A stretch of 63,859 bases of DNA, filler included, from Chrysochromulina tobinii (taxonomy: Eukaryota): the NCBI GenBank assembly GCA_001275005.1. It is 9 parts of 9 records of this genome, joined end to end, with 100 filler letters (N's around TTAATTAATTAA, not from the genome) between each part and the next. Parts side by side here need not be neighbours in the genome. Positions count along the whole stretch, not along the records: positions 1 to 15,403 come from JWZX01000001.1; 8 more parts are not named here. One strand, given 5' to 3'. This document shows positions 1 to 61,318 of this stretch, one piece after another. The position numbers and the translations under genes were made by a program. Every line of letters begins with the position of its first letter. Within the stretch, counting starts at the first letter, position 1. The notes under the pieces are model-generated. The model worked only from the letters and a program-made list of their open reading frames with translations. It did not search any database and was not told the origin of the DNA.

Positions 1-61
1 CGAGGCGCTCTGATTGCCCTTGATGGCCTCTGATGACCTCTCTGATTGCCTCCCTCATCAG

Positions 62-1275
62 GCGAGGGCCACGAGGCCAGCAGGCTCTACGCCGAGGCGC
101 TCGAGGTGCAACGTCGATCGCTGGGCGCTGAGCATGAGGAGACACTCGTCACGGCCAATTTGCTCGGCGGTCTCCTCGAGCGGTCGGGTGAGTACGGCGA
201 GGCTGGGGCTCTGTTCCAGGAGACGTACTTGAGGCGGCGGCGCACACTGGGTGACGAGCACGAGCTGACGCTGCAGTCGATGTCCAATCTGGCCTCCTTG
301 CTGACGCAAACGGGCCAGTACGACGACGCGGCGCCGCTACATCGGCAGGCGCTCGACATTCGGCGGCGTAAGTTGGGTGAGGATCACGAGCACACGCTCG
401 TCTCGAAGAGCAACCTGGCCGTGTTGCTGCAGCTGACTGGGCGGCCGGAGGGCGCGGCGCAACTGCTCGAGGAGGTGCTCGAGGGGCAGCGACGAGCTGG
501 TGGCGAAGAGGATGAGGCGACGCTGGTAACCATGGCGAATCTCGCGATCCTGAAGCAGGCCCTAGGGCGCCATCAGGAGGCCGAGGAGCTCCTTCGCGCG
601 CTGATCCGCATGCGCCGGCGGGGGTTGGGATCCGAGCACCCGGACACGCTCACCTCGATGCATGATCTTGCCTTCCTGCTGAGCCAGACGAGCCGCTCCG
701 CCGAGTCCGAACGGCTCTGTAGGCGAGTGCTCGATGCGCGTCGGCGCACTCTCGGCCACGAGCACGAGCAGACGCTGCTCTCCGCCATCCACCTTGGCAA
801 GCTGCTCGAAGACAAGAGCCACTTTGACGAAGCCGAGGCACTCTTCTCCGAGGTAGTCGTTGCGCGAAGGCGTGCGCTGGGTGAGCAGCACGAGGCGACC
901 CTGCTGGGCATGAACTGCCTCTCAGCGCTCCTTGCGCGGATGGATCGAAAGGAAGAAGCCGAGCTCCTTTACCGCAAAATCCTCACCATCAGGCAACAGA
1001 CGCTTGGAGAGACACATCCGCACACGCTGCGCACGATGGTCAGCCTGGGACACTTCCGTGCGTCTCAGGGCGAGACGCAGGAAGCCGCGGGCAATTGGGC
1101 TCAAGCCAGCTCGGCCTATCGCGAGGCGGCTGCGCTCTGTGCGCCCAAGTACGGTGATTCCGCTCCCTTCATCAAGCGCCTTCGAGAGGCGGCCGATAGG
1201 TTGGCCGAGACGCGCTGCATGCAAAACATGGCAGGTAGCGGGCCGCGTAGCGGCGTAGCGAAAGTCTATAGATAA
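62..1275 (+). CDS. TPR-repeat protein (kinesin light chain / nephrocystin-3-like 42-aa repeats), terminal exon; 5' part outside window
   Basis: Repeated LG-x-EH-xx-TL-xx-M-xx-LA units. Bases 1-61 look like an intron 3' end (ctgattgcctccctcatcAG). Confidence 0.85.
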
Positions 1276-1785
1276 CGTAATGAGGCGATGACAATGCTAG
1301 AGTACTCCTAGAGAGAGCGAGCGTGTCACTGTCAGAGCGGAGCAGAGGGACGAGCACGAGCGAGACGATCCCCGGCGGGGCCCACGCGGCCACGCGCGAC
1401 GCCGCGACGTTGCAGACGTTGCGGGTTGCGAGTTATTCGGTTGAAGGCCGATACTCGAGCGGGTGACAGCCTTCCGTTACGTTATCGCTGATACTCGGGT
1501 AAACTCGTGGATACGATAATTTTACAAGATCAAGAATCCCGGCCGACCCGCGCGTAACGCGGGGCGTGCGTGAGACGGACGACTATCCGCGTCGAAAAGC
1601 CGTAAATATATTCGCGCCGCGCGACACCCCGCCGCGCCGAGCCGCCGGGGTCCAGTGCAGCACGCGCGCGTCATGAAGGATTAACGAGCGTGTCAAAACT
1701 GTGATCGACTCGTATGCCAGATTATGCCTTCACTCTCTCGTCTGTCTCGCCGCGCGCCCCTCAATCATGTGAGAGCTCTCACGCC

Positions 1786-3348
1786 TCAAAGCCGACTGGT
1801 GCGCCCTTCCGCACCGATGAACGCCGAGCGCTCGCCGAGCGCTTCCAGTGCGCGCTGTGCGGCGCGTTCGCCAGTCTCCATCGCCCCATGCACGCAAGGG
1901 TTGATGCCCTCGTGGCACGCCTCCCCTGCAAAGAAGATGGCGCCGTGTGCGGCGAGGCCGAGGGCGGACCTGTGGGGAGACCAAGGCGCCGTAGTGAGCA
2001 CTTGCATGCAGGGCCAAGGCGCGTGCGCGGCGAGGCCGAGGGCGGACCGCTGGCCGGCGGCGCCGAGTGTCGGATGGCTGTAGGCGCCGTATGTGCGTGG
2101 GTGAGCATTCCAATCTTTGACGAGGAAGCCGTCGCACGCGCTGCTCGCTGGCCTCGGCTCCGCGGCCGTGCCAAACATGGCGTCGAGCTGCGTCAACATG
2201 AGGCGAGCGATCTCAGCATGTGGCACTCAGTGGCACTCAGTGGCACTCAGTGGCAAGCAATCAGTGGCAATCACCTGCGTCAACATGAGGCGAGCGATCT
2301 CAGCGTGTGGGAGCTTGGCCACGCGCTCAGCGCGCGCGCCCGCGACGAAGCCGACCATCGTGTACGGCGGCGGCGCGTCCTCGCGCATCAGCTCGGCGGC
2401 GGGCGAGAGCCACACCTCAGGCAAGAAGGCGTCGGCGCACACGGCGTCGTAAAAGTCGAGCGGCCAGAAGCGGCGCGTCAGCCGCACGATCACCTTGAGC
2501 GCCGAGCCCATCCGAAGCTTGCTGATGGCGGTCGAGTGCACTACCGGCAGCGGCGGCTCAAAGTGCACCTCCCCACGCTGCAAGGCGGCCAACGGAACGG
2601 TGACGATCACCGCGCGGGCCCGTACAGTCCGTCCGCTGCTGTCAACGAGCTCCACGCTGCACGCGTCGTCTGCGGCTGTTCCCCTCCCGGCATCCACGCA
2701 GACGCGCTCGACGGGCCAATTGGTCCGGAGAGGCAAGCCGCGTGCGAGCGTCTCCATGGCGTCCTGCAGGCAGGCTCCGCGCATCACGATGTACTTCTCG
2801 CCGTAGCTCCAGCTCCGCTGCTCGTGCATGACCTCATGCAAGCCCACATCACTCATGTCTGCGCCGTAATCGTTGCCAAAGATAGCATCGGCGAGGTCAA
2901 GCACGCGAGAGCTCAGGCCACAGCCCGCAAAATACTGCAGGAGCGACTGCTCGGGCACCGCGGCAGCGTCGAGCGCCTCGAGCTTCTCGAAGCTCTCGTG
3001 CATCAATGCAACATCGTCCAGGTTGTCTGCCGTCTCAGCCGGCAGCAGCGTGGCCTCCTTTCCAAAGAAATAGTAGTTGGGCCACTCAAGCTCAACAAGG
3101 CTGACGTTCGCACGGCCGACGAGCCCATCCCGCACCAGATCGAGCAGTCTGTTATTCTTCTCGCCATGGATGAACTCGGGGCCGAGCTCGAGGGGCCACT
3201 CTGCGAGAGTGGCATCGTGCAGCACGCGTCCGCCAACTTTGTCAGACGCCTCCAACACGACCACGCGCAGACCGCGCTCGTGCAACGCGCGCGCGGCCGA
3301 TAGGCCGCTTGCGCCGGCGCCGATCACCGCGACGTCGACATCCTCCAT
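1786..3348 (-). CDS. Flavin-containing amine oxidase; exons 3348-2275, 2187-2048, 1969-1786
   Basis: GAGASG FAD motif, GGRV, ELGPEFIHG and C-terminal FFAGEA...VHGAMETG. Removing GT-AG introns 2188-2274 and 1970-2047 restores the frame and removes duplicated peptides. Confidence 0.9.
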
Positions 3349-4503: not shown

Positions 4504-5184
4504 ATGCTGCTCTCCCGCTTGACTGGCGTCGCTCTTTGCGCTCTCGCAGCCTCAAAGTGGCAGCCGTGCATGCTGTTGGGCGATGATGCCACTGCGACTC
4601 ACTATCGTCTGGAAACGCTCAAAGCGGAGCTCGCAGAGGCCATTCGAGATGAGAGATTTACAGCAGCGGCGCGCTTCCGGGACGAGCTCAGTGCGCTGGA
4701 GAGCGAGGCCGAGGGCCAAGTCCTAAGTGCCAATGCTGCCTTCTATGCGGCGCTGCGCTCGCACGATGCTGACGTACTTCATGACTATTGGCCAGACAGC
4801 CCTTTGGCGGCGTGCTCGACGAGGAGCTACCCTGGGTTCTCGCTGAGGCGCGGCCGCGAGGCGATCCTGGGCACCTGGCGCGAGGTAGTATCGGATCGGG
4901 GGTTGGAGCTCGCATCGGTGCGCTGTGTGCTGCTCCGTGGCGGCATCTCCGCGTGCGTCACATGCGTTGAGCGGAGGCACACAAGTGCCTTCGAAGGCAC
5001 GCTCCTGACGACGAACATTTGGGAAAAGGACACGAGCAGCGGCGGCCGTTGGCGACTGAGCCTGCATCGGGCGGAGCCTATGGCTGACGGTGACGCTGCT
5101 GCAACGCAAAACGGCGGGCATGCAGCGCGGCTGGTCGAGGAAGAAAGCTACTTTGACGAGGATGTTCCCGGCGCGACTGGATGA
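4504..5184 (+). CDS. UVR-domain + SnoaL/NTF2-like protein with N-terminal targeting peptide
   Basis: LAEAIRDERFTAAARFRDEL (UVR motif); ANAAFYAAL...GREAILGTW...TNIWE...WRLSLH (SnoaL-like); hydrophobic N-terminus. Confidence 0.75.
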   Translation: MLLSRLTGVALCALAASKWQPCMLLGDDATATHYRLETLKAELAEAIRDERFTAAARFRDELSALESEAEGQVLSANAAFYAALRSHDADVLHDYWPDSPLAACSTRSYPGFSLRRGREAILGTWREVVSDRGLELASVRCVLLRGGISACVTCVERRHTSAFEGTLLTTNIWEKDTSSGGRWRLSLHRAEPMADGDAAATQNGGHAARLVEEESYFDEDVPGATG

Positions 5185-5418: not shown

Positions 5419-8400
5419 ATGTTCGGCTTCGGCGGGCCGAGTCTCGCCGACCGTGGAGTTGCACAGCTCAAAGCCGACGAGTTGCCCGACCTCGTGAAGA
5501 ATGCGAGCGACATTTCGACCAGGTGCCTGGCGAGCCTGCTGCAAGCACAGGCAGAGCTGCTCGCGCGCGTGAACCCCGATACGATTCAGAACAGCGCGAC
5601 TCGCGCCATGCTCGCGGACTTCATCGCGCAGTCGCTTCCACTCCTTGTGGCCGAGTCGGACGGTGTGCTCGCGTCGACCGGGAACCACCTGTCAAATGCG
5701 CACCTATACCTGGAGGCTGTGCAGTACGTTTACCCTGCTGAGAGCGGCGACGCGGAGGAGGAGTCCGGTGCAACGAGCGCGGAACTTCCTGGCGGCGGCT
5801 ACCCTGAGCAGCAGAAGACGTTACGTGCAAAGTCGGCGCGTGCCAAGTCATCACGTACTACCTTCCGCCAGCCGACGCCGCAGCAGCTTGAGAACGAGGC
5901 GGTGCCGATGCAGACTGAGCCGACCGCCTCCGAGCTCGGAGACAGCGCCGAGGCACTCGCGTACGAGAGGGCGCTTGCGGCCCTGAACGCGGTCAGCGCG
6001 GCCGAGATGGACCGTTCAGAGGACGGACGTGCGCTCGGCGAGCGGCAGCTGCTTGCATTCGTAGTAGACAAGGTGGCGGGCGGCGCGCCAGCATTCAAGG
6101 CGAATAAGCTGCCCCAGATCCTCGGGTCCCTCGTCAAAGAGGAGTACATCACCGCTGCTGTGAATGCGACCAAGAAGGCTCTCGATCCGAGCCTCCGCGG
6201 CCACATTGAGGTTGGCGCCTTCGTCGATTGGTGGCCCAGCTCCAAGTTCGCCACCGCGCAGTACGAGAACGCCTGGATGAGGGAGCTCAACCTCGAGGCG
6301 ATGCGCACTCAGCTCATGTCCGAGGTGATCCAGCGTCAGGTGGAGCAGGAGCAGGCGGCGGCGGCAGCGCAGGCGGCGGCGGCGCAGGCGGCGGCGGCCA
6401 AGCAGCAGCGACTCGCCTCGCAGCCGAAGCGCGTTCAGGCGGTCCTCGTGAGGCTGCGCAAGGCGGAGGCGGCCGTGCAGGACGCGCACGCGGTCGCCCT
6501 TCGCGAAGCCCTCGTGGCAGTCGAGGAGCTTGCTGACGTCGAGCCACCCTTCTTGCAGCGGCTGTACGAGCAGCTCGAGAGCGCGTCGCCACTGATGGCA
6601 CGCGCGCGCGGCGCGCAGTTCACGCAGCTGGTCCACCATAAGGCGAGGGCGCTCCAGCTCATGAAAGAGGTCGATGCGTCCGCTCACGCCGAGCGTGAGG
6701 CTCGCGAGGCCGGCGCCGCCGCGCTCGCCGCGTATGCAGGCCGTGCGGAGGCGATGCATCGACGGCTGCACAACCGGTCGGCGGCTCAGACGGCCGAATG
6801 GCTGCGCGGACGGGTGAAGAAGACAGTAGAGGGGGGGAAGAAGCAAGAGGCGAAGCAGCTGGTTGACGCGGAGACGAAAAAGGTCAAGGGCGCACTCGAT
6901 GCGATGAGTGACTGGCTCGAGACCTACGGCAAGGCGAGGATCGATGGCCTCAAGCAGCGCTTCGACAAGCTCGCCGAGCGCGCGTTGGCGCTCGCGAGCG
7001 CGGGGCACAATGCACAGGTGGGCGGCACGACCAAGCACCAGGCGTCGCTGAGCGCGGAGCTGTCGGCGCAGCTGTCGCGCGCGCTCGACACGACGCATGA
7101 GACGGAGCATGCGGAGCTGCAGACGAAGCTCGACGAGCTTGCCGTTGGGCTCGGCCTCCTTGACGCTATCCCGACTGATGAGCACTGCCATCTCCTCTGC
7201 TCCGAGCTCTACTTCAAGCAGCGGCAGAGCTTGGCGACGCTGCATGCGGCTGAGCACGCCGCGGTGCCCCAGATGGTGCGCGTCTTCGTAGATGTACTCG
7301 GAGGGCCCACGCCTGTCGAGGACTCCGCGCTCGGCACGACGCGCGTCTCGGCGGCCGAGTTGGTAGAGGCCTCCACCTTTGCGACGATGCTGCACACGCA
7401 GCTCGGCCTTGAGCAGCGGCTCGATGCGCTGCACAGCGCGACGCGCGACACACGCCAGGCCGTCGTCTCGCTCGCAACGAGCATGCACGCGGGGGGGGAA
7501 GCTGCGAGACCGCCCCCGGAGCAGCTGGGTACGCTGTGGAAGCTTGTTCTCGAGCTCGAGCGGCAGGCGAACGCTGTGGAAGCAGCGGTTCGGGAGGCGG
7601 TGCACTCGACCTCGCAGCACATGCAAGGCTTCGAGGGGCGCAACTTGCCACGTGCGCAGGCGATGCTGGACGCGGGGAAGGCCATCGCGCGCGCCGCAAG
7701 TGCCGTCGTCCGCATCTTGCGCTGTGAACCACCGGCGCCGACGAAGGGTGGCGGGGCCCTACCAGCGATCTCCTCGGCGATCTCCTCGGAGTTTGTTGCC
7801 GGCGCAGCTGGCGCGTCGGAGGTGTTGGTGGTGCACCCCGCCGAGGTGCATCCCAACCTGCCCGGCCTCGCCGAGCGATGGAGCACCGTCGTGGTCGCGA
7901 TGCAGGCCGAGCAGCAGAAGCTCGTCGCGGCGGCCGAGGACATGGAGCAGCACTCGCTCGACATGCAGCAGCTCTTACTCGAAGTTTCAGAGCATGCCGA
8001 GGGGGTGATGGCGCGATTCCAGCTGCTCGTCGACGCGAATGCCAAGCCACTGCGCCACGCGGGGAATCTGGCGGCGCTCAAGACTCTGTGTGAAACGTAC
8101 GAGCGCGCGTCCAGCGCCCTGCGAGAGCGTGCGATGAAGGCGGTCGAGATGCCCAAGCTCTTTGCGCGGCTGTCGGGGCAGCTGCAGCAGCAGCAAGACT
8201 CGATCAACGCGTGGTGCAAGCCGCTGATCAACATGAAGCAGGAGTTCGTCGACGTATTCTCCGCAGACGACAAGCCCGGGGCCGACAAAAAGGGGGGCAA
8301 GGGCTCAGCGGAGACGACGGCCGTAGAGCATTCCTCCACCGAGGCCCCGGCAGCCGAGCCTGCTAAAGGCGCCAAAGGTGGAGGCAAGGCCGCGCCCAAG

Positions 8401-13300: not shown

Positions 13301-15403
13301 CGCCCTCGCCGCCGCCGCCCTGCGCGCGCGTTACGCAAATATCCGCTCGTTCTGGTGGTTGTGTGGACTACCTCAGACTGGACTTCGACGATGGTTCATT
13401 CACTGCTTACGGGTCCCAAGGAAATCCAACGACCACATTCAATTTGCTGGCGGGTGAACATCTCGATTCTGTGTCCTGGACTCGATTCCAAGGTGGAGCA
13501 TATTGTCTTCCTGGCTGTGCGGTGACCTTCATTACTTCCTACGGACGCAGTGCCGGCATCAGCGGGTCATGGGGTCCTGCGAACGGCTGTCCTGCGCAAG
13601 CAGTTCAGTTTCCCAGTAACCAACGGCCGATTGTAGGGCTCAACTATTCAGCACCTGATGGGACCTCCATGTCCCAAGTTCTTATCGGTCCAATCACCAC
13701 GGTCTCTGCTTGCGCGGCGTCGCTTCCGCCCTCGCCGCCGCCGCCTTCGCCCTCGCCGCCGCCGCCCTCGCCGTCAGCACCACCGCCCCCGCTCGTGTGC
13801 AACTTCGTCGCGGGCGATGGCTTCGGCGGCGGTGCCGCATCGGAGTTGAACACCGGGTCTTCTTATGGCTCTGGGCTCGAATGCGCCGAAGCGGTCCGCA
13901 CCAGGTACCCTCTCGCCAACGGCGTCACCTACGGCCCCGGGGGCGTGTGCTGGGCCGAGTTTGGCATGCATAGCAGCAACCCTGCCTGGATTAATTGGAG
14001 CACGTGCCTCTTCGGCGGCTGGCCGTCACCCCCACCTTCGCCACCGCCGCCTTCGCCTTCGCCGCCGCCGCCCTCGCCGTCAGCACCACCGCCCCCGCTC
14101 GTGTGCAACTACGTCATGGGCTGGGTCGCCGTCTTTTCGGGGCTTGAGTACCTCGGGGCCCCCTTTGACTCTGGGCTCGACTGCGCCGTAGCAGTCCGCA
14201 CCAGGTACCCTCTCGCCAACGGCGCCGCCAGCCATGGGGGCAACGGCGCCTGCTATGCAGTATCTGGCTTGGTTAGTCTCGACACTAACACAGTTTGGCG
14301 CACGTGCCTCTTCGGCGGCTGGCCGTCACCCCCGCCATCGCTGCCGCCACCGTCGCCCTCGCCGCCGCCCCCGTCCTCGCCGCCTCCGCCATCGCCACCA
14401 CCGTCGCCACCACCACCCTCACCTCCGCCATCACCGCCGCCTCCGTCCCCACCACCATCGCCACCCCCGCCGAGCCCACCACCATCGCCGCCTCCTCCCA
14501 GTCCGCCTCCGTCGCCACCACCTCCCTCACCTCCGCCGTCACCGCCGCCACCCTCGCCGCCACCGTCTCCTCCCCCACCAAGTCCTCCGCCTTCACCGCC
14601 ACCCCCTTCACCACCACCGTCTCCACCACCACCATCGCCACCACCTTCGCCGCCACCTCCGTCCCCTCCGCCTTCGCCTCCACCGCCATCACCGCCGCCC
14701 TCGCCACCTCCTCCAAGCCCACCACCTTCTCCACCACCGCCCAGTCCACCGCCATCGCCTCCTCCTCCTTCGCCACCGCCGTCGCCCCCGCCCCATCACC
14801 GCCGCCTCCTTCGCCACCACCCGACGCCACCACCTTCGCCCCCGCCACCTTCCCCCCCTCCTCCTTCGCCTCCTCCTCCCTCGCCGCCTCCACCTTCTCC
14901 TCCACCGTCTCCTCCACCTCCCATGTGGTGTGACAACGCCTGCGTAGCCACCTTTGGGCGAACCGTGGTCGACGTGAGCTCCGATGGTACTTGCGATGAC
15001 GGAGGTCCGGGGAGTGAGTATCCGTACTGCAAAGTCGGCCACGATTGCGACGACTGTGGCCAGCGTTTCAAGTACCCGCCTTCACCGCCGCCGCCGTCGC
15101 CGCCGCCTCCTTCCCCGCCTCCACCATCGCCCCCACCTCCCTCTCCACCTCCTAGGCCTCCACCGCCTTCACCACCGCCGGAGCCTCCGCCATCGCCTCC
15201 ACCCCCGTCACCCCCACCGATGCCACCTCCTCCATCGCCGCCACCCCCGTTGCCACCTGCACCAGACGGCGGGTACAGCCCGCCTCCGCCCTCGCCGCCG
15301 CCTCCATCGCCACCTCCACCTTCCCCACCCCTCCCCTTCCGCCTCCTCCTTCGCCACCAAGCCCAACGCCACCTCCATCACCGCCGCCGCCTTCGCCTCC
15401 ACC
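10321..15403 (+). CDS. Mosaic SPPP (extensin-like) ORF: Cys-rich modules, EF-hand-like insert, ShK-like and jacalin-like domains; 3' truncated. A real gene may start at ATG 12787
   Basis: Four LVCN...CLFGGWP modules, CPVACGTC motif, jacalin-like RVTQISARSG..VDYLRL segment, long SPPP tracts, signal-peptide-like FALALLVLCAPQVSA after Met 12787. Confidence 0.55.
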
Positions 15404-28499: not shown

Positions 28500-29298
28500 A
28501 CGCATGCAGCATGCTGCTCACGCATGCTGCTCACCCATGCTCTCTCTCTCGCGCGCGCGCCGCGCGCCGTCCTCGTGCGCGAGAGAGCATGGCGGCACAC
28601 GAGGAACCGTTCCGTTCGACCTCAGCGGGACAGCGGGAAACCACGGTTCCGATCTCTCTAGTGAGATATCGAAGCGTGGCTCTCTCGTTTTCTCTGAGGC
28701 CTTGGGCTCTCGATCGCCAGCTTTTCACGACACTACCCTGACAGGTCCATGTGGCCAAAATGTGTGTACTTCGTGGCCAAAATGTGTGTACTTCGTCAAG
28801 TATCGCCAAGGTGAGGGTCAGGAGAGTCTAGATTAGGGTTTTCTATATATGGTTCTCTAGATTAGGTGGGCAAGACTCACGAGCGGAGAGTGAGAGACGA
28901 GAGAGTCCACTCAGCACTCTCCACACAGTAGCCCATGGCTCTGCGGGGTATGATATTGTCGATTTTCGTGTCCAAGGGTGACCCGTGCCTACGTCGACAA
29001 CCGTACCGTACTGTGTCGTGTCGAGTCTGTGAGCTGCGCTGTGACCTGATGCTCGGCTGAGAGCCATTGCTGTGAGCTGTGAGCTATCCGACGATTCATC
29101 CTGTATCCTAAAAAACACGCCGTGTGCGTGCGTCTCTTTGCGAGGTAAAATGTTTGTATGTTATAACGCGGGGGGACCGCGACGAAACTGACTGACGGAC
29201 TGATGTTTGTATGTATGACGAAACCAACCGCTCCGCGTCGGCTCTGAAATCGACTGACCTTTTCGTTGTTTCGGAGAGCCTTTTGTTAATTTTTGGCC

Positions 29299-31370
29299 AT
29301 GGGCTGTGCCCCCACCAAGCAGCAGCCTGAGTCGCCGGATCCGTACGCCGAGCCGGATGCCGAGCCGGATGCCAAGCCGTCTGCAGACGATGCCCTCGAG
29401 ACACAATTGATGGGGAGCGTCGGCTCTGGCAAGGAAGACACCTTGATGGACAAGCAGACTTTCAATGACGTGGTCGTCGAGCTTGGGCTTCAAGGAATTG
29501 CGGCGGACATGAGTGAGGACGATCACAAAGAGCTCGAAGATTACATCAAGAGCCTAAAGGAACGCCAGACCTCGGTGACAGGCTTCAACCTTTGTCCGCA
29601 CCACGATGAAATTTTGCGAGGCCAGCCACGACCTGAGGAGAAGCCCGCCAAAGCAGCGAGCCGATCCCATATGCATCGCGAGCTGCTGCGCAAGCCGTCA
29701 ATAAAGCAGTCGGTTTTGGATGAGATGGACAACGCGACGGCGCGGATGCAGCCGAGCGCCCGCGAGACCAAGGACATGCTCTTCGCGCTTCACGCCTACA
29801 CGCGGGACGAGATCTACCGCGAGTTCAACCGCGACCACCGCGAGCTTCGGCCTGAGCCTTGGGCTGCTGTCTCGAACACGATGCGCTGCGCCGTGGAAAA
29901 TGCACGCTCGCCAGATGCCGGCGCGACTCTCTACCGCGGCGACACTCGCAACTTGTACACCCTCCGGAAGGGTCAGCTGGACTGCTTTTCTCAGTACACG
30001 AGCGCGAGCCTCAATCGAAGAGTCGCGAAAAGCTTCTCGGGGGACAAGTGGATCTTTGAGATCACGGGTGTCCCGCATACCCACTGCGCAATCATCAAGC
30101 ACGCGTCCAAATACCCGAATGAGGACGAGGTTCTAATTGCGCCCGGGTCCACCTTTTGCGTGGAGAGTGTCGACGAGTCAACCACTCCGAAGGTCGTGCG
30201 TTTGCGCTTTGGCGAGGATGGCAAGCAGGCCGACTGCGAGTGGTGCCTACTGGAGCGCGAATTCAGCACCTCGCGCCTGGTCACTGGTTCGTCAACGATC
30301 ACCGCGTTTGGTGTCGCGCTTGCTGGGAGGGCTCCAGGCAGGCCCCGCGCCGACGGCGACAGGCCCTTAATCGATGGACCATGTTTCAAATGCTTCGATA
30401 AGAACAGCCAGCTGGTCGATGGTACGGGAATGAAGCGACCACTCCTGGTTTCGGCTGCGGGTCGTGGCGCGGCAGGGGTAGCCATGGTAGACTTGCTGCT
30501 CGATCGGTTCGGGCTGGACGTAGATGTGGAGCGGCGCTTCACAGCATCCGACCACGCGGCACAGGCCCTGGAAGCTGCTCTGCGCTCCCCAAGCGGGACT
30601 CCGGGCCGTGCCGACTGCGTCGCCGCGATCATCGGCAACTGCGTACTGCGTCGACCTTCGCCATCCTCAACCTTCGAAGCCATCGTGTCACCGCTGCAGC
30701 TCGGCACCTTGCTGCGAGAGCCAGAACTCGAACGCATCGCTGAGCTAGGACAGAACTACCTCAGCCTTCCCTTGAGCAAGCCACGCGTGGTGTCCCTGTC
30801 AGCGGAGCAGCTCGTGCTCGCCATCCCATGGGCTGATGCAAAGGGCGAGACGCACGAGGCTGTGCCGTCGTGGCTGAAGGACGGGGCGTTGTGGTCAGAC
30901 GCAATTCGTTTTGAAGTCGACGCGTTCTCTGTGGAGTCCGGCGCGCCAGAAGTGGCCGGAAGCCAGGAGATCGATGCCCCATACCACTCGTGGCCCGGGG
31001 GCGCTTATGACATCAGCACAGAGCCATTGCCAGCAGGAGGAGTCCTGCTCAAGATGCCCAACAATCTGGCGCCGCTTGCGTCGAAGCTCTGCGTTGTGCG
31101 CGTTCGTATTGCCGAGGGTCAGTTCATCGCCGGTTCGGCGGCAAAGAGCTACTCGTGCAATCGGCAGTCACTGTGGTCGCTGCGCAGCAATGCGACCGAC
31201 TGGGAGGCTGCAGAGGCGGCTCGAAAGGAGGCAGAGGCCGCCGAGGTCGCAGCCAATGCGGCCAAGGCGGATGCGGACGCAAAGGCGGCAGAAGCGACTC
31301 TGTGGTTTCTGCGCAGCCATGCTAACGCAAAGGCGGCAGCGGAGGCGAAGGCGGCGGCTGAAGGGAAGGC
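29299..31370 (+). CDS. N-myristoylated R-S-E type (ARTC-like) ADP-ribosyltransferase domain protein; 3' truncated
   Basis: MGCAP N-terminus; ALHAYT...LYRG...YTSAS...SKYPNEDEVL motifs. Confidence 0.8.
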
Positions 31371-31470
31371 NNNNNNNNNNNNNNNNNNNNNNNNNNNNNN
31401 NNNNNNNNNNNNNNTTAATTAATTAANNNNNNNNNNNNNNNNNNNNNNNNNNNNNNNNNNNNNNNNNNNN

Positions 31471-33496
31471 CCATCATCGCTGCAGAGTGCTCAGCACGCT
31501 CTGCGGGCTCAGCAAGCTCAGCAAGCTCAGCAAGCTCAGCAAGCTCAGCAAGCTCAGCAAGCTCAGCAAGCTCAGCAAGCTCAGCGTGCTCAGCGTGCTC
31601 AGCAGGTTCAGCATGTTAATTTTGCTCAGCATCCTCATCATGCCCAGCGAGCTCACTGAGCACGATGAGATCATGCTGAGCACGATGAGATCATGCTGAG
31701 CACAATAAGCATGCTGAGCATGCTGAGCACGCTAAGCTTGCTGAGCACGCTGAGCACGCTGAGCACGCTGCGGCGATGTTGGCGATGATGAGCCCACTGA
31801 GCACAATGAGGATGCGCGCTGACGGCTGAGCCCGCTGAGCATGATGAGGATGCTGAGCACGATGAGAATGCTCAGCCTGCTGAGCACGCTGAGCTTGCTG
31901 AGCTTGATGAGCGGGCAGTGCTTGATGAGCTTGCTGATCCTGAGCATGCTGCAGCGATGTTGGCGATGCACGATGAGCATGCTGAGCACACTGAGCGCGA
32001 TGTCGATGAGCTTGCTGAGCACACTGAGCACGATGAGGATGCTGAGCACGATGAGCATACGATGAGCATGCTGAGCACAGTGAGCATGCTGAGCCGGCTG
32101 AGCATGCTGAGCTTGCTGAGCATGCTGAGCTTGCTGAGCCTGCAGAGCACGCTGAGCACAATGCGGCGATGTTGCCGATAATGAGCATGCTGAGCCCGCT
32201 GAGCACCATGAGGATGCTGAGCCCGCTGGGCATGATGAGGATGCTGAGCAAATTTAACATGCTGAACCTGCTAAGCACGCTGAGCTTGCTGAGCTTGCTG
32301 AGCTTGCTGAGCTTGCTGAGCTTGCTGAGCCCGCAGAGCGTGCTGAGCACTCTGCAGCGATGATGGCGATCTTGCACAATGAGCTTGCTGAGCATGCTGA
32401 GCACAATGAGCTTGCTGAGCATGATGAGCTTGCTGAACACGCTGAGCACAATGAGCTCGCTGAGCACAATGAGCCTGCTGAGCCTGCTGAGCCTGCAGAG
32501 CACGCTGAGCTTGCCGAGCCTGCAGAGCACGCTGAGCTTGCCGAGCCTGCAGAGCACGCTGAGCATGCTGCGATGCACGATGAGCATGCTGAGCACGCCG
32601 AGCAGGCTGAGCATGCAGAGCAAGATGAGGATGATGAGCACAATGAGCACAATGAGCTTGCTGAGCTTGCTGAGCTTGCTGTGCTTCCTGAGCCTGCTGA
32701 GCACGCTGCAGCGATGTTGGCGATGCCCTATGAGCACTCTGCGCGCACAATGAGCACGATGAGCTTGCTGAGCCTGCTGAGCATGATGTGGATGCTGAGC
32801 ACAATGAACACAATGAGGATGCTGAACCCGCTGAGCATTAGCTGAGCATGTTGAGCCTGCTGAGCTTGCTGAGCACGCTGAGTAAGCTGGGCCTGCAGTG
32901 CACGCTGAGCACGCTGCGGCGATGTTGGCTGATGATGAGCCGGCTGAGCACGATGAGGATGCTGAGCCCGCTGAGCACAATGAGGATGCTGAGCCTGCTG
33001 AGCTTGCTGAGCCTGCTGAGCTTGCTGAGCTTGCTGAGCTTGCTGAGCTTGCTGAGCTTGCTGAGCCTGCTGAGCACGCTGAGCACGATGCTGCATTGTT
33101 GCCGATGATGAGCATGCTGAGCACGATGAGCACGATGAGGATGCTGAGCCCGCTGGGCATGATGAGGATGCTGAGCAAAATTAACATGCTGAACCTGCTG
33201 AGCTTGCTGAGCTTGCTGAGCTTACTGAGCTTGCTGAGCTTGCTGAGCTTGCTGAGCCCGCAGAGCGTGCTGAGCACTCTGCAGCGATGATGGCGATCTT
33301 GCACAATGAGCACGCTGAGCATGCTGAGCACAATGAGCTTGCTGAGCATGATGCTGAGTACAATGAACACAATGAGGATGCTGAACCCGCTGAGCATGTT
33401 GAGCCTGCTGAGCTCGCTGAGCACGATGAGCATGCTGAGCCTGTTGAGCCTGCAGAGCACGCTGAGCTTGCCGAGCCTGCAGAGCACGCTGAGCTT
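31471..33496. repeat. 9-bp-based (GCTGAGCnn) satellite with higher-order blocks and one inverted block
   Basis: The whole contig is GCTGAGC variants. Blocks at ~32171 and ~33098 recur; 31471-31650 is the reverse complement of ~33151-33293. Confidence 0.9.
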
Positions 33497-34911
33497 NNNN
33501 NNNNNNNNNNNNNNNNNNNNNNNNNNNNNNNNNNNNNNNNTTAATTAATTAANNNNNNNNNNNNNNNNNNNNNNNNNNNNNNNNNNNNNNNNNNNNTCGG
33601 CGAAATGATCAAGGCGCGTGCGGCAGACGCGTAGCGGCCAGCAGTGCGGCCGGAGCCCCCGATAAGCTCGAGACGTGAGAGGCGGAGGCGGGCATGCGCA
33701 ACGGCCGCGGCGAAGCCGACCTGGGAGCGCAGGTCTTTTTACCGGTATCCTGAGAGACCACTTTTTCGTCCAATTTGCGGACTTCTCTCTGCAAGCTGAC
33801 TGGTCGATGGCGTCCTGTGGCGTGGTGCCTCGGACTGCAGGCTCGGAGTGGGGAAATGCAGGCTCGGAATGGGAAAGGGAGTTGGACGCTGTCCTCCAAG
33901 AGGTTGACACGAGCGCCAAACCGATCCTTTACGTCCGCGCGTCTCAGTACTGCTCGAGGCTATAACATCGTGTCCACCAGCCTTGGCCCTCACCCGACCC
34001 TCACCCTGGCACACCCATGAAACGCGCTGCGACAACCTGGCCGCTATGCTCCCTCATGAATGGATCTGCTCGCTCAGGTATCATCGAATTTGTCAGAGAC
34101 GGTTAGAGCGTGGCCAACGAGAAGCCATCCGCCCAGCCCAGCCACGTCAGAAGGTGCCGAACCTCCCGGATCGCCCTTGCCCTCACTTGGTCAGCGCACT
34201 CTTCATGACGTATGATGTGCCATATGTTCTCTCCTCACGCTTGCAGTACCTACACGAGTCTCGGCATCTGCACGCACTTCAGCGGGCGCGTGGCCATAAG
34301 GGCCGCTTCACGCAGCAGAAAGGATGCGCCGCAGAAGTTCCGACCGATGCGTCCCACATTTTGGCTGCACCCATGGTCGCAGTCGAGCCGATGCAGCAGT
34401 AGATGCCACGGCGGCGCAATGCCAACGCACTCTAGTGACTAACGCACAACAATAATACGGCTTCCAACCATGTGAGCTCACTGTGTACCGCCGAAATGCC
34501 GTGCCCGGCAGGGTCCGTCTCGCTCACTCTGCACTGCCCGACGACGTGTTAGGCTGTTACGGAACGGTCGACGAGCGCCGTCTCTACGGTTACGCGGTAG
34601 GTCTCCGCCACAGCGCACGCGCGCGGGCCGCGGGGCCGGGAGCGCGACGCGTCAGCGTCTGCAACTGCATCGTGCATCACGGGGACACGGGCTGTGTACG
34701 CGATCGTTGGGCCCATCGCGATACATTTATCGTATCGAATTTCCTTTCGACTGTTTACTCAATACACAGTGTCAAGTTGTGGTTCGACTTTCGGTTTGAC
34801 CGTGTCCCACACAAGTTTGACCGTGTCCCACACCAAAACGAGTTACAATTCTTGCGAGACGGTCTGAACTGTGTGCTCAAGCTGCTCACTCGCTCGACGC
34901 TGAGGAGCTGC

Positions 34912-40550: not shown

Positions 40551-43500
40551 TCAAATCGGCAGGAACGCCAAAGGACGATGGCCGCTCTCGGACGACGAAG
40601 GCCTCTTCATCGCGAGCGCTCGCGCGACCAAGGCTGCGACCGGCCCAGGCGACTTTGGCTTCTCCTTTGCTGCGGGACTCGCATTGGTATTGAGGGCGCC
40701 CAGCATTCGCCTCGGCTGCCCGGGCGTAGGTCGGGACGCCCCAGACTGCAGGTGCGGCTCAAGGTGCTTCGACGGAGTGCTCCGCTCAGGGCTCCTGCCT
40801 CCCTCAATCATTTCGGGCTCGCCTGATGCGCCCCATCGAATCTCCTCCGAATGAGATCGAATCTCCTCCGAATGAGATCGAATCTCCTCCGAATGGGCAC
40901 TGAGATCGATGGCGCTGCTGCCTGCAGAGTGCTCGTGTGCTCCACGCGCCTGGAGAGCAGTCTCGGTCCTCCCCAGCTTCTCCTGCATGCAATGCAATGA
41001 GACACACTCAGTGGATCTCGAGACGCACTTGCATGCAATGCAATCAGACGCACTCAGTGGATCTCGAGAGGCACTTGTACGCAATGCAATCAGAGGGTTT
41101 TCGAGAGGCACCTGCATCCTCGCCAGCTCATCGGCTGCCATGCGCAAATTCTCCTGTAGCCTCGCCACCTCGGCTGCATGCACCTGGGCAGCCCGGCTCG
41201 CCTCCGTCGCCAGCGTCGCGCTCACGTCGTCATTATGTAGCACGCATGCCCGCAGTGCCGCCGCCTCCTCCCTCAGCACCCCCAGCGCGCCTGCATGCTC
41301 CTCCCTAATTCTGCCGAGCGCTTTCGTATGCTCGTCGCGCAGCGCCCCAATTGCCCTCGTATGCTCTGCCTCCGCCACCTTCTGTGCCAGCCGCAGTGAC
41401 GCGAGCTCATTCAGCAAGGTCGACTCACCCGTCGCGTCCTCGAGCCGTCCTTTTTCTTGCTTCACGAGCTCGAGCTGCGCCTCGGCCGCCGCCCGAGTGA
41501 GCTTCGTCAATTGGAGCCGGAGCGAGCTCACCTCCGCCTTCGCCTTGTCAAGAGTGGCCGCCTCCGCCTCCACCGTCTCCCCGAGGCTCAAAAAGAGCTC
41601 CTCCTCGAGCTCCGCCGCCTTCGCCTCGCTCGAGCGCGCCCTCTTCTCAAGCTCCGCCACCTTGGCCTCGCTGACCCGTGCCTGCGCCTGCGCCCGCGCC
41701 TCGACCTCTGCCACCCGCGCGATCGCTGCCTCCACCTCCGCTGCCTTAGTCTCAAGTACCGCCTGCATCTCCGCCTGCATCTCCGCCCTCTTTGCCGCCA
41801 GCGCCGCCTCGTGCACGGCGCGCGCCTCCGCCTTCGCCGCGGCCAGCTTCTCACCCGCCTCCTTCATCACCGTCCGCACGGCAAAAACTGCCTCCTCCAT
41901 CGCCGCTGCCGCCTCAGCCTTGTCGAGTGCCCGAGCTCGCTGTTCCACAGCAAGCGCCTCCGCCAGCTTCTCTGCAGCCCTCGCGCGCTCCTCCGCCCGT
42001 ATCGCACCCTCTTTCTCCTGCTCCCTCACCTCATTCCTTCGCCGCTCCTCCGCGAGCACCTTCGCTACCGCCGTCTCGATCGCCGCCTCGCGGTCGTGGG
42101 CCGCTCGCTCCGCTGCCACCTCCTCCGCCCTTGTATGCTCAGCGTCGGCGAACTCAAGCGCCGCGGCAACGTCCGCCGCATGTGCTTCGGCTGTCTGCAG
42201 GGCGTCCGCCTTCGCCTTCGCCTCGACTTGCGCCGCCTTGTGCGCCGCGGCGGCCTCCATTTCCACAAGCGTGGCGGCGCGTGCGGCGCGTGCGGCCGCC
42301 GCCGCAGAGGTCGCGACCACTTCTTCTCGCAACGCCTTCGCCACCGCTCGCTCTGCCGCGACGGCCTCCTCCAATGCCGCTGCCGACCTCGCGGCCGCCG
42401 CAGTCAGGGCCGTTGCCAGCGTCGCCTCGTGTGCAGCACGTGCCTCCGCCAGCGCTGCCGCTAGCTGCTCGGCCGCCTCCGCCGCCATCTCCACCCGTAC
42501 GGCTTTGACCGCCTCCGCTAGCTGCTCGGCCGCCGCCTCTGCTGCTTTGCGCGCCACCTCTGCTGCCTGCGCCTCCCTCGCCTCCGTCTCTGCCTGTTTG
42601 ACCGCCTCCGCTGCCGCCCAGGCAGTCTCCTCCGCCTGCACCGCGCGCGTGCTCAGAGCATCGATTTGCTCCGCCATCAGCGTTCGGAACAGAGACGCTC
42701 GGCGCTCGTGATGTGCGCCCTCCTCCCTCACCGCCGCCTGCACCGCCGCCTGCACCGCCACCTCCACCCGCGCAGCCGCGCTCGCAAGCTCCCTCGCCAT
42801 TTCCTGCGCGTGCTCAGCGTCGGCATCCGCCAGCGCCGCTCGCAGCGCCGCACAGTCCACCGACGCTCGCGCGTCGAGGTCGACGAGCGCCTCGTGCAGG
42901 CAATCGTCTGGGGTCGTGAAGAGCCGATGAGGTGCGTCCGTACAAAGAAGCTGCGAGTCCCAGTGCGGCTTCAGGGGCGGCACTGCCGATCGCGGACTTG
43001 GCGGAGGGCCGATGGTGCTCACCGCCTCACCGAGCGCCGCCCCGAGCGCTTCTTGCGCACCCCGATCCACCGGCCGGTCTGGCTGCTGCAACGTTTGGTT
43101 GTGCACCCTCTGGGCCCGGGCCGCGAACAGAAGTGTGCTCAGGGTCTCGGCCTTGCATGCGGCGAGCGGGCTCACGTTTGCGACCAGCCACGTGCGAGCA
43201 CTCCCCCCCAGAGAGTCTCTCAGTAGCTGCGTGAGTTTCGAGTCGCGGTAAGGTACGTGTGGCCGCCCCGCATTGAGTGCCTGGATCATTCCCGAACGCG
43301 TTCAGAGTCAGACAGAGTCAATCGTACGCAAGTCGAGGCAATTCGAGAGGCAATCATCACGGTGCCACACCCCTCTCGCCAGATCACCTACCTGGATCAC
43401 TCCTGACAGTGCCGAGAGGCTTCGGTTGATGGAACAAGCCTCATCCAGCAGCAAGCTCTCATCCTCGGCGCAGGCCGGCATACCCAACTCCGAGCTCGAC

Positions 43501-44363
43501 TGTGAGACGCGGGCCTGCCGCTCCGAGCCGGCGAGATCCACGAGATTGAGCTGAGAGGTTCGTACCTGCAACACGAGATCAACGAGATTGAGCTGAGAGG
43601 TTCGTACCTGCAACCCGAGATCCACGAGATTGAGCTGAGAGGCACGTACCTGTAACCCGTCGCTCGCACGCGTGACGCGCTGCAGCCGCAAGATGAAGAC
43701 TGCATGCGAGCGCGAGGAGTGGTCGTTCAGCAGAGTGGACGCAACGGTTCGGCGTCGCGTCCCGAGCGCGAGCGTGCGCAGCGCCTCGGCCGCAGAGCGC
43801 AGCTGCACTTGCTTCAGGCCATCGACAAAGGTCCCGCGAGCATCAGGAGCCTCACGCAGGCGCAGTGACGCTGACGCGGGCGCGAGAAGGTCGGTGATTT
43901 GATCGTTGTGGATCTGCAGGAAGCTGCAGCTGCAGTAAAAGGTAGCACCGGCGTCCGCCGTCGAGGCCTCGGCATCAAACTCGGCTTGCTGCCGACGCGC
44001 GAGCTCGCCAAGGGCCTCCTCGAGCAGCCGTGGCAGCAAGCCACGGTCGTCCTGCTTGCCGCCCGTCATGGTGTACGTCTTTCCTGAGCCCGATTGGCCG
44101 TAGCACAAGATGGTCCCGTTGTAGCCGCCCAGGAAGGCATCGAGCGTCGGACGTCCCACCACGTCGAAGACACGCGCTTGCGAGGTGCCCTCGTCGCCGG
44201 CTTGATCAAAAACAAAGGAGCGATTGTCGAGCACGACCTCGGACCGACTATCAGTGGCACCGTCGGCTGAGGAACGAACCGAGATCGTTCGCGTACGCTC
44301 GCGAGCCCCTTTGTGGCTGCGCACCCGAACGAAGACGGACACCGGTTGGAAGGGGGCGGTCAT
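40551..44363 (-). CDS. Kinesin motor protein (kinesin-12/KIF15-like) with coiled-coil stalk; introns 43566-43649, 43281-43391, 40983-41111
   Basis: GQSGSGKT, SSRSH, LVDLAGSER, HVPYRDSKLT, ETLSTL. GT-AG intron 43281-43391 joins the two ORFs. Confidence 0.9.
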
Positions 44364-54049: not shown

Positions 54050-56672
54050 TCAGCTTAGGTCGTACGGGTTGGTGTGGCTGCTGCCGGCAGCGGCCGGAGC
54101 CGGCGGCTTGCTACGCCGCACACGCTCGGCGGCGAGCTTTCCTTGGCAATTCGCTCCGTAGTAGCCTCCACCGCTTTGGCCGGGCACTCTCCCATGCCGG
54201 TCTGGCCGCGCGTTCGCTTGCGTTCGGGGCAGATGGCCAGCGTCGTTGGTGGACCACGGGACGTCGTTGGGCGCGTAGGGCTTCGGCGGGAGCGAGTAGG
54301 GCACTGGTACCACGAGCGCGCCGGCGAGCTGTGAATGGGCCAGCTGTGAATGGTCCAGCTGTGAATGGGTCGCTGCACTGGTAAAGCCGGCCGCGCCGCC
54401 CAGCACGACGCCCGCGTGGGCCTCGGTGCGAGTGCTGCCGCTCGTGCTGCCGCTCGTGCTGCCGCTCACGCCGTGCAGGTCGGGTGCGCAGAGCGGCACT
54501 TGCGGCGTGGCCATGAGGAGCACACCTGTGGGGAAGGGCGAGACGCCGTGGTGAGCACTTGCATGCTGGAGCTCGTGCGGCGTGGCCAGGAGCACACCGA
54601 GCTCGTAGCTCATCAGCGGGTCATTAAGGGGTCATTAAGGGGTCATTAAGGGGTCATTAAGGGGTCATCAGGTGATTCGTGGCTCACCGAGCTCGTAGCT
54701 CTTGATGTAGAGTTGGGTCTCTTTCTTCTCAAGCTTGCCCCAAGCCGCCTGCGACAAGTTGTGCGAGGCGAGGATGGCCCAAGGCAGGGTGCGATCGGCG
54801 GCGTAGCGGCAGTAGGTCTTGATGTGAGGCACCGCGAGGGCGCGCCCGCTCGCGCCGCCATACGCGCCATCGCCGCCATCCCAGGTGCATAAGCGGCCAC
54901 GTGGCAAACCCATCTTAGGCAACTCGGCGAATCTTGCCTAAAATGGGGAGAGAGAAGGCGCCGTGGTGAGCACGTGCATGCAAGGGCAGGTCATCAGATG
55001 CAATCGGCAACTCGGCGAATCTTGCCTGCAGCCGCTCGACATTCTGTACCTCACACGGGATGCTGTTGCCCGCGTACCAGCCTTCCAGACTCTCGCCCAC
55101 CTGCGCCTGCGTCGGGAAGACGACCTCGATCGCAGACGGCGTTGGGCGCGTACCTGTGGGGAGAGGAGGGCGCCGTGGTGATCACTTGCATGCACCTCGA
55201 TCGCAGACGGCGTTGGGCGCGTACCACAAAAGGAGCGCACGAGCTCAACGAGCCATTCTGGTTTGGTGCCGGGCGACGAGAGCGATGAGAACTGCAGCAC
55301 GAGCGGCGCGCTGTGGAACTTGGCCTCGGACGGCGCCGCGTCTAGGATGGTCCGTACCTGCGTTGGACGGGCGAGTGGGGCGCATGCGATGAGAGAGGTC
55401 ATCAGTGGTCATCAGCGGTCATCAGGATGGTCCGTCCCTGCGTGAGGTCCCAGCGGCAGCATGCAATCAGCATGCACTTAGCACGCCCTCAGCATGCAAT
55501 CAGCATGCCCTCAGCACGCAATCACCGTACCTGCATGTGGCCCCAACGGCCGAGCTTCTCGCCCGTGTGCCGCCCAGGCACCGCGCCGAGGAGCCGTGCG
55601 CGGCATGCAGTGTAGTCGTAGCATCGAATCCATCTCAGATCGAGCGCCGCCCATCGAGCTTGCTCAGCCGCACTCTGCGGCTGCCACTGCGGGGGGGGAT
55701 GCATGCCGAGCTCTCGCACCTGCGGGGGAGGATGCATGCATGCATCAGGAGGATGCATGCCAAGCTCACGTGCACGCATGCATCTACCGTGAGGTGCATG
55801 CATGCATCAGGATGCCGAGCTCACGCACCTCCCGGTAGTACCCGTCGAGGTCTTCCCCAAAGGCGCCGATCGGAGCGGCCGCACTGCCCGCCGTGGCCGG
55901 CGCACGCGCCGCGCGCGGGAAGCTCTCCGTCCAAATCCCATTCGTCTTGTTCCACACGTCAGCAAAGATGAAGTTACCCGAGAGCACGGCCACTGTGAGC
56001 TCGGCTGGGCGTACGATGAATAGGGCCTTGGAGTGATGCGTGCCGAAGCGCTCGCACGGTGGCTGCAGGAACACGAATCGGCCCGGCTCGGCGGCAGCGC
56101 ACTGTGACTGCGGCGGCATGCCATCACCATGCACTACGACCACACGCGGCACGGTGCGCACCGCGGGGCACTCATGCACGACAAAGTCGAGCTGCGGGCG
56201 CAGGTGTCGATCCACAGACCGATGGTCAGCAGCAGATGAGCAGAGGAGCCAGAGGGCTGGTGATCGGGAGCCAGCGACGCACGTCGATCATGAAGTTGAC
56301 GATGTGGAGCTCCGAACATCCACACAGTGAGTCGGCCGACAGCAGGTCAGTGATCGACAGCGTCCCTTCGTTGCACCGGCGAGCGACCAATCCAGCCTCG
56401 ATCCATGCCCGGTGCAGCGTGCTGAGATGAAAGCCGAGCTTCGGGCCAGGGAGGGCAGTGCTCCCAGACATGCCGGCTGCGTCATGCATCTTGGAGCGCT
56501 TAGCTGGCGGCTCAGAAGCGGGCTGCGCATCTTCGTCAGTGGAGCCGTCGAGAGTGTCTGCGAGCCACGCCGCGCAGGCAACAAGGTCGGCGCCGTGCGT
56601 CGCCATGGCTGAGCGCACGCGTTCGGCCGGGAAGCCCATCGCAAGCAAGGACGCCTCAGTCTCTGCTTCCAT
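54050..56672 (-). CDS. TDP1: UBA + tyrosyl-DNA phosphodiesterase 1; exons 56672-56283, 56191-55829, 55719-55531, 55357-55225, 55153-55026, 54937-54688, 54525-54050
   Basis: The spliced product reads in frame with [46 protein letters not shown] and PVPY.LPP.PY. N-terminal LLAMGF...AAWL is UBA-like. Confidence 0.92.
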
Positions 56673-60244: not shown

Positions 60245-60711
60245 GTCGGGGATGAGGTAGTAGAGTGGCCCTGGCGCACGCGCGATCGCCCCCTGCAGCT
60301 TGGTTCTGGACCCGACCGNNNNNNNNNNNNNNNNNNNNNNNNNNNNNNNNNNNNNNNNNNNNTTAATTAATTAANNNNNNNNNNNNNNNNNNNNNNNNNN
60401 NNNNNNNNNNNNNNNNNNGCTGGACCACGCGCTGTGCCCTGCAGTCACTGCTCCATCCTCCCACCAAACCACGTAGGCTGCACCGTCTGCTCTGATAAGA
60501 AATTCATCGCCGTCAAGTTCGTCGCCGTCCCGCCAGCGGCAAACAACGAAGTTGACGACTACGACTACGACCGCTGGTCGTCCGACGAGGATGAGCTTAG
60601 AGAGGGCGACGAGCTCGACGACCGAAACGGGCTTTTCGACGCAGCGCTCGCGGCAGAGGACGATCATCGACATAAGCAGCAGCCGCCGCTGCCGCTGCCG
60701 ATGATGAGCAC

Positions 60712-60712
<1 letters not shown>

Positions 60713-60784
<72 letters not shown>
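60713..60784. repeat. (CAG)24 microsatellite
   Basis: Uninterrupted 72-nt tract. Confidence 0.95.
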
Positions 60785-60786
<2 letters not shown>

Positions 60787-60843
60787 CAGCAGTGGCATCC
60801 ATGCAGCAGCCGCCGCCGCCGCAGCCAAGCAGTGGCGGCGCAC

Positions 60844-61318
60844 CATAGCCTGGGTGCACGGCGTCGACGCCGTTGTCGAGCGCGATCTGGACGATCTGCT
60901 TGATGTCGAGGTACGCTGAGATCGGCGATGCCGTCGCCTCCTTTTCGAGCTGGAACGACTGGTCAGAGCCCCACCGGTGCTGCGAGTATCTGTCCTCGTA
61001 GCCGTAGATCGCGACAGTGGCCATGTTGAGCTCGGTCGCGGCACGCATGATGCGCACGGCGATCTCGGCGCGATTGGCGGCCATCACCTTCTTGAAGGGC
61101 GGCCGCCCTCCTAGAGGATCGAGCGAGCCTCCCTCGAAAACTGGGTCAACGTCCGAAGCTTCGTTGACGTACATCCGTGCGTCCTCGACCCCCATGCGCA
61201 CCGCCGGCGTCGGAGCCGGACGGCTCACGGTGAGTGGCCGCCCGACGCCACGCAGCGAAGCGGCGAGTGCGGAGCCGCCGTCGCAGGCCGCTAGAAGCAG
61301 CACGACGCGCAGGGCCAT
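60844..61318 (-). CDS. PYC: Pyruvate carboxylase, plastid-targeted, exon 1
   Basis: Signal + transit peptide, then FKKVMAANRAEIAVRIMRAATEL...EDRYSQHR...AYLDI...HPGYG; GT donor at 60843. Confidence 0.88.

Follow-up and report, generated by a model that had tools for sequence, protein, structure and literature searches.

Introns of Chrysochromulina tobinii with one splice site in a duplicated exon end, and their possible origin in break repair

The source of new spliceosomal introns is a long-standing question, for which current surveys mostly favour transposons; the case for break repair has so far leaned on short repeats and has often been statistically weak. An intron in an amine oxidase gene of Chrysochromulina tobinii raises this question at a single locus: how could an intron come to end in a copy of the exon that precedes it, and does the same process operate at other introns? 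The window, i.e., the whole stretch of DNA analysed here (63,859 nt), is eukaryotic with ~63% G+C and scaffold gaps; within it the duplicated footprints of 20–37 nt are found at most introns of three genes, in both geometries, and with apparently empty alleles.

The amine oxidase introns and their removal from RNA

1785..3348, minus strand: gene for a flavin-containing amine oxidoreductase (PF01593) with three exons, host of the 87-nt intron
2275..2310, minus strand: upstream exon end, the duplicated segment, 36 nt (sequence)
2188..2274, minus strand: GT-AG intron, 87 nt, acceptor-side duplication class (sequence, RNA contig join 2275^2187, empty sites in relatives)
2224..2274, minus strand: 51-nt filler, GT donor plus 10-mer repeats (read from sequence)
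2188..2223, minus strand: intronic duplicate of the exon end, 36 nt with 1 mismatch, source of the CAG acceptor
1970..2047, minus strand: 78-nt second intron of the opposite class, with a donor GT from a 27-nt copy of the downstream exon and an acceptor from a cassette (RNA contig X12 lacks the 78 nt)

The earlier note described intron 2188–2274 as filler followed by a 36-nt copy of the exon end (1 mismatch) with its CAG serving as the acceptor, and this description is borne out by the sequence and by placement, given that GT/GC-AG borders are possible in just one of all sliding 87-nt placements at this site. The observation is real, recent, and well above chance. The filler contains the 10-mers TGATTGCCA/CTGAGTGCCA, and its repeat phase runs 4 nt into the duplicate (microhomology), which puts the duplication at 32–36 nt; the single mismatch to the upstream exon end is a C>T at 2218. 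The intron contains an in-frame stop, and once it is excised the peptide MLTQ|LDAMFG is regained, matching relatives (the closest named relative of the host gene is from Prymnesium parvum, at 67%). There is no AG|GT within the duplicate, and the donor depends on the 51 nt of foreign filler; the intron is not composed purely of duplicated exon with AG|GT, as a tandem genomic duplication would be.

Matching words were found in 16 sequencing runs, five of which were aligned (X2, X3, X11, X12, and X13), with next to no matching words in runs X17–X20. The RNA junction predicted for this intron, 2275^2187, is present in a poly(A) RNA contig (X12 record 10, 1.65 kb) that joins the two positions with zero letters between them, and that also lacks the 78 nt of intron 1970–2047. 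Since X12 derives from a different strain (~1% divergent from the window), the join might itself reflect an empty allele. No contig bridging 2275^2187 was found in RNA run X11 among the matches listed. Short-read contigs end at filler sequences.

Empty sites and alleles

The orthologous site of intron 2188–2274 is empty in 5/5 relatives that cover the position (L005, L007, L009, L010, and L011; 57–76% identity), and neither amine oxidase intron is present in any of them. L010 and L011 carry introns elsewhere in this gene, and their empty sites are therefore DNA. The 87 nt are identical in assemblies L001, L003, and L004, and in L002 (~2% divergent).

The allele data come from prokaryote-style gene calls on population contigs (15 listed of a 62-member protein cluster); these calls run into the intron, which makes alleles readable from proteins. 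Twelve of the 15 listed proteins enter intron 2188–2274, and three (97–99% identity) are without it: P0002 retains the next intron (1970–2047), and P0131 (98.7%) and P0133 (96.7%) lack both, the longest contigs for the latter two being 3.7–5.1 kb vs 1.65 kb for the RNA contig. To judge from proteins, the population apparently includes alleles empty for this intron, although collapsed assemblies, RNA that is only part-spliced, or a precise deletion between the repeats could also account for such proteins.

Alleles that carry the intron differ in filler length and in the mismatch. P0124 has one 10-mer unit fewer and a perfect copy (36/36), P0132 has one unit fewer with the mismatch retained, and P0129 and P0134 are missing a 4-nt stutter of the filler; the peptide ends of all four were reproduced by slicing the window in silico. 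The perfect copy in P0124 indicates that the single C/T mismatch arose after insertion, which rules out its derivation from the filler as microhomology.

Junction repeats in other introns of the window

43281..43391, minus strand: 111-nt kinesin intron, 13/15 nt match to the upstream exon end (sequence, X13, sister lineage)
40983..41111, minus strand: kinesin intron, 129 nt and in frame, built of 46-nt repeat units, with a 7-nt junction repeat (sequence, X11 and X12 skips)
43566..43649, minus strand: 84-nt kinesin intron, a 42-nt exon segment three times around AG|GT and nothing else (X11 skip of 84)

Kinesin intron 43281–43391 had been described as having the same design as 2188–2274. In support of this, its 13/15 match exceeds the best of 1514 AG-ending coding 15-mers (11), and the RNA junction 43392^43280 is found in X13, as a 13-nt loose end of one contig; the filler does not conform, in that its repeat-like units are decayed, with no clean 10-mers. 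A diverged intron occupies the same site in the sister lineage (14/20 proteins, plus P0170 and P0171), and 43281–43391 is an older intron than 2188–2274. For intron 40983–41111, the claim was of 6 nt shared with the upstream exon. The match is present (6 nt on the upstream side of the junction and 1 nt beyond it) and the intron is spliced out in X12 (short side 105 nt) and in a 16-nt X11 loose end, but the same 6 nt also terminate the intron's own repeat unit, and the junction repeat may represent duplication or microhomology, or else chance. Given the decayed units of the former and the 6-nt match of the latter, both are weaker examples than 2188–2274. The X11 and X13 contigs that show the kinesin joints have no differences from the window, and DNA run X2 covers both introns unspliced.

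Intron 43566–43649 is apparently a tandem-duplication intron that is still segregating. The triplicated 42-nt segment (window 43532–43659) occurs as 1-, 2-, and 3-copy alleles in window-type proteins, and as one copy in the sister lineage. A 42-nt skip in X12 (40835–40876) was rejected as an intron, being a copy-number allele with no GT-AG; window 40835–40898 contains an in-frame 21-nt coding repeat with 1–3 copies among alleles.

55720..55828, minus strand: TDP1 intron 2, 19-nt repeat, donor-side class (sequence)
55358..55530, minus strand: TDP1 intron 3, probably two nested duplication-plus-filler events (sequence)
55154..55224, minus strand: TDP1 intron 4, acceptor cassette with a 32-nt repeat that is perfect; alleles without the intron apparently exist (sequence, proteins)
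54938..55025, minus strand: TDP1 intron 5, acceptor cassette with a perfect 22-nt repeat that provides a GC donor; here too alleles without the intron apparently exist (sequence, proteins)
54526..54687, minus strand: TDP1 intron 6, donor-side intron plus a probable second event (sequence)
1..62, plus strand: 3′ end of a repeat-filled intron in a TPR gene (sequence, assemblies)

TDP1 introns 3 and 6 both seem to result from nested events, at splice junctions that already existed; in intron 6, the second event would have copied 14 nt of the upstream exon together with the old donor around a repeat filler. Proteins P0208, P0212, and P0215 start within TDP1 intron 3 and stop within intron 6, yet introns 4 and 5 are absent from them, and P0213 and P0217 are without intron 5 (15 listed of 50 cluster members). 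The TDP1 of the window clusters at 90% with a gene model of Chrysochromulina parva, to which it is ~99% identical where aligned. Such introns also affect annotation: the public C. parva TDP1 model has been misled by them, merging two and omitting a 63-codon exon (55531–55719) that matches the Pfam profile. TDP1 (window 54050–56672) has six introns, and most neighbouring genes have none. At window 1–102, a 92-nt unit (intron end with acceptor plus 41-nt exon head) is in tandem, with a copy number that differs among L001, L003, and L004.

We compiled a census of 14 complete introns from five genes, annotated by RNA, homology, or frame; it lies within 64 kb, is non-exhaustive, and was in part guided by repeats. 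Nine of the 14 score at least 6 at one junction vs 0.13 expected, and seven score at least 8. The junction repeats of these nine are 7–37 nt long, with six on the donor side and three on the acceptor side; the remaining five introns are TDP1 intron 1, the PDH intron, two NF-YA introns, and TDP1 intron 6 (duplications internal). The null expectation was obtained by pairing intron ends with AG-ending coding positions (17,853 AG-conditioned pairings), and gave scores of at least 6 in 0.39%, at least 8 in 0.05%, and a maximum of 9; the 2188–2274 junction scores 32. Tandem duplications without filler (period 20–63 nt) number 15 in the window outside masked arrays, vs 0–3 of any period in 5 shuffles; two of the 15 lie inside census introns and one is itself an intron (43566–43649).

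The proposal that one process can take either splice site from the duplicated target is supported as to geometry, as both arrangements occur in one gene (2188–2274 and 1970–2047) and window-wide, and acceptor-side and donor-side introns have filler motifs in common; that a single process underlies them is a reading of these likenesses. Mismatch count as a measure of relative age, also proposed, agrees with the data only coarsely: two perfect TDP1 duplications have apparently empty alleles and the 13/15 kinesin intron is common to the sister lineage, but 0 and 1 mismatch segregate within intron 2188–2274, and comparison with L002 places the 1970–2047 mismatch in the exon copy of the window. Matches of 6–15 nt carry little information on age.

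Origin of duplications and fillers

We put at roughly 0.55 the probability that 2188–2274 is a recently gained intron for which repair of a staggered break duplicated the exon end and added a short patch, with the 5′ end of a repeat-filled intron as its likely template. We infer the staggered break, the fill-in, the copying of filler from an intron end, and selection for clean splicing or frame, as follows. Two nicks 32–36 nt apart would open the exon, and the 3′ end at ...CAG would prime on the donor junction of another intron, or take up its RNA or cDNA. GT and a few 10-mers would then be copied and rejoined to the other end via 4 nt of microhomology (across events, filler would be joined through 2–4 nt), and fill-in of both overhangs would leave the target in two copies. 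With the imported GT spliced to the duplicated CAG, the mRNA would be restored exactly, so that the allele survives, and the number of 10-mers could later be altered by slippage. In the mirror event, an acceptor cassette would be imported and a duplicated GT/GC would serve as donor; unspliceable insertions would be lost unless in frame.

Intron 2188–2274 has both a flanking direct repeat and the signs of recent gain (an empty orthologous site or allele) that characterize break-repair intron gain in Daphnia pulex, as reported for recent polymorphic introns with flanking direct repeats and filler DNA at the break (PMC3488318, PMC3296678). These accounts of D. pulex describe short repeats and fillers of no evident origin, whereas the repeats here reach 36 nt, giving a whole splice site, and the fillers belong to genome-wide intronic repeat families. 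In mouse cells, end-joining of engineered breaks with protruding ends is described as leading to tandem duplications, which at times include microhomology and templated inserts (PMC5730883); as here, the sequence between the nicks is directly duplicated, although the mouse-cell inserts are locally derived and intron creation is not linked to them in that account. Direct repeats of 4–30 bp near intron borders have also been read as insertion footprints (PMC11782384); 213 mixed introns were surveyed manually there, with a similarity threshold of ≥70%, and haptophytes, alleles, and empty sites do not figure in that account. In one reported comparison, repeats occurred in 19/77 gained vs 26/100 control introns (PMC3296678). 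Overall, the splice-site recruitment seen here is introner-like, and the whole fits best with break-repair intron gain with unusually long footprints.

The fillers provide evidence that weighs against break repair. They fall into two motif families, 10–11-mers around CTGA(T/G) and a cassette terminating in the acceptor, and occur in many copies of varying lengths and ends; each begins or ends precisely at a splice site, with the other inner end ragged. For four filler motifs, the intron share of matches is 8/8, 4/6, 6/9, and 5/5 (TGATTGC[CA] accounting for 8/8), with introns making up 1,600 of 63,859 nt; TGATTGC is on the sense strand in 18/18 matches from five genes, many of these being tandem copies. 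Blind DNA templating should leave intergenic and antisense copies, and this sense and intron bias therefore counts against it. In addition, the core of the acceptor cassette recurs in the window (4 intron copies), as a family, as a mobile element would. Emiliania introns are reportedly rich in 10–11-bp repeats. In viral contigs, filler patterns matched at 0, 0, and 1 locus, and the lone locus (L133) showed no such intron. A 16-nt filler pattern gave single matches in unrelated bacteria and archaea, which we took as chance.

Related loci carry comparable structures. L010 has an intron of the same design but with another filler, namely CCCTAA units between the two copies of a 16-nt repeat; the corresponding site in L009 is empty. 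Three further L010 introns, read by eye, have 5–6-nt junction repeats. Sense-strand CCCTAA/CCCTGA units are present in L010 introns 2845–2986, 5049–5142, 5464–5624, and 6118–6238; this locus has 35 CCCTAA and 0 TTAGGG, and the units hold a branch-point-like CTRAC. In L004, the adjoining gene contains an in-frame 54-nt duplication-plus-cassette that is absent from 6/6 aligned sister proteins and, read by eye, has no in-frame GT/GC-AG placement. In the L004 coiled-coil ORF (the gene reaching window 1–1275), there are three in-frame cassette-derived segments between direct repeats (14311–14383, 13849–13919, and a third between these), with a common local sequence variant; one is missing from sister proteins, and another is inverted relative to them, with 6-nt inverted ends. 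The antisense segment was not counted as a case of strand-blind insertion: a local inversion explains it, because the sister lineage has a sense copy between the same flanks and the ends are inverted over 6 nt.

More tentatively, and well short of an even chance, intron ends (or, more boldly, excised intron RNA) may be captured at staggered breaks in transcribed haptophyte genes without any transposon, bringing an exact GT or AG while a 10–40-nt duplication gives the other site. Each lineage would in this way reuse the repeat of its own introns, which is the 10-mer here and CCCTAA in the relative, and gains and precise losses would now be segregating in lake populations of a culturable alga. 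Alleles apparently without such introns would make intron birth testable; with the long footprint, the sequenced genome, and cultures, they would render the rate, polarity, and template of intron gain directly measurable.

Insertion by reverse transcription is the main rival to break repair, because an RNA template would account equally well or better for the exact GT/AG ends and for the sense and intron bias; we nevertheless regard it as doubtful. Here, non-LTR enzymes would carry out target-primed reverse transcription of intron-derived RNAs or of a SINE-like element, with variable staggered nicks giving the long duplication, the natural end of the RNA supplying a precise GT or AG, and its opposite end being truncated or primed by microhomology. 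This would accommodate the variable duplication length across the nine introns (7–37 nt), the one exact and one ragged end in each class, and the hundreds of other contigs that match fillers alone (867 X3 contigs aligned, where depth is not a copy number), and non-LTR introners are reported to exist (PMC12130899). Yet there appears to be neither a poly(A) tail nor an element body common to the fillers (the acceptor-side class ends in tandem repeats, and the donor-side class in the acceptor cassette); duplications of the same size without filler are frequent, and L010 employs an unrelated filler.

It is unlikely that the structure arose in two steps, with a plain in-frame tandem duplication of 33–36 nt by slippage and an intronic minisatellite that later arrived and expanded at the join. 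In favour are the frequency and polymorphism of plain duplications, the shifts in filler unit number after insertion, and intron 43566–43649, which is purely such a duplication. Against this, all cases examined have the filler precisely between both copies, and the 15 listed members include none in which the duplicate occurs without filler. In the tandem genomic duplication model (PMC3296678) an exon duplicate likewise supplies the splice sites, as that paper outlines it, and 43566–43649 is a pure example; in 2188–2274, by contrast, the donor has to come from 51 nt of foreign filler.

We consider equally improbable a classical introner, i.e., a non-autonomous DNA transposon that carries a donor and co-opts an acceptor from its target-site duplication. 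Splice-site co-option from target-site duplications is reported for introners of Micromonas, Aureococcus, Symbiodinium, Polarella, and Chrysochromulina sp. (PMC9860276, PMC11282704, 10.1101/2020.10.14.339549), with duplications of 3–9 bp and co-option in both orientations (PMC9860276). According to the legend of its Fig. 2C, the Chrysochromulina sp. family brings the donor and takes the acceptor from a 4-bp duplication, with no inverted repeats, and its supplement places introner families in many Chrysochromulina and Phaeocystis MAGs. Co-option of either site from a duplication, Chrysochromulina (4 bp) included, is therefore already published for introners (PMC9860276). The published descriptions resemble the present introns in the import of one site and derivation of the other from the duplicated target in either orientation, in exact restoration of the mRNA, in related sequences in many introns, and in having haptophytes among the listed carriers. 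As there described, target-site duplications are family-specific and often accompanied by inverted repeats, whereas those here vary over 7–37 nt, without inverted repeats, around minisatellite or intron-end-cassette fillers with ragged inner ends, and with nested and filler-less events alongside. At 2188–2274 itself, a splice site is co-opted from the duplicate, but there is neither a fixed short duplication nor terminal inverted repeats; none longer than 2 nt were found in 6/6 fillers tested, and the filler is a variable minisatellite with a 3′ end that is not conserved. Terminal inverted repeats are not universal among DNA-transposon introner families.

Assembly artefact or chance similarity, prompted by short-read contigs breaking at fillers and by the repeat copy number at window 1–102 varying between assemblies, is a very remote prospect, refuted for 2188–2274 by the identical 87 nt in four assemblies (L001, L003, L004, and L002), the 12/15 proteins that read into the intron, and the null maximum of 9 vs 32, and possible for the 6-nt match at 40983–41111.

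Among titles and abstract openings, with subscription journals outside the search, we found no publication describing haptophyte introns in which the duplications are long and variable and the fillers are repeats; the supplementary Chrysochromulina duplication calls of PMC9860276 could bear on this.

Elsewhere in the window, a 2-kb scaffold piece (31470–33500) consists of a 9-mer satellite (CTGAGCA-type) similar to some intron fillers. The ORF at 29290–31368 (plus strand) contains an ADP-ribosyltransferase domain (PF01129, E 1.5e-14), and two related BspA-type LRR arrays with 69-nt units are located at 48850–50000 and 62700–63700. A biotin-carboxylase gene at 60420–60850 (minus strand) is interrupted, close to a scaffold gap, by what is probably an intron containing a long run of CTG.
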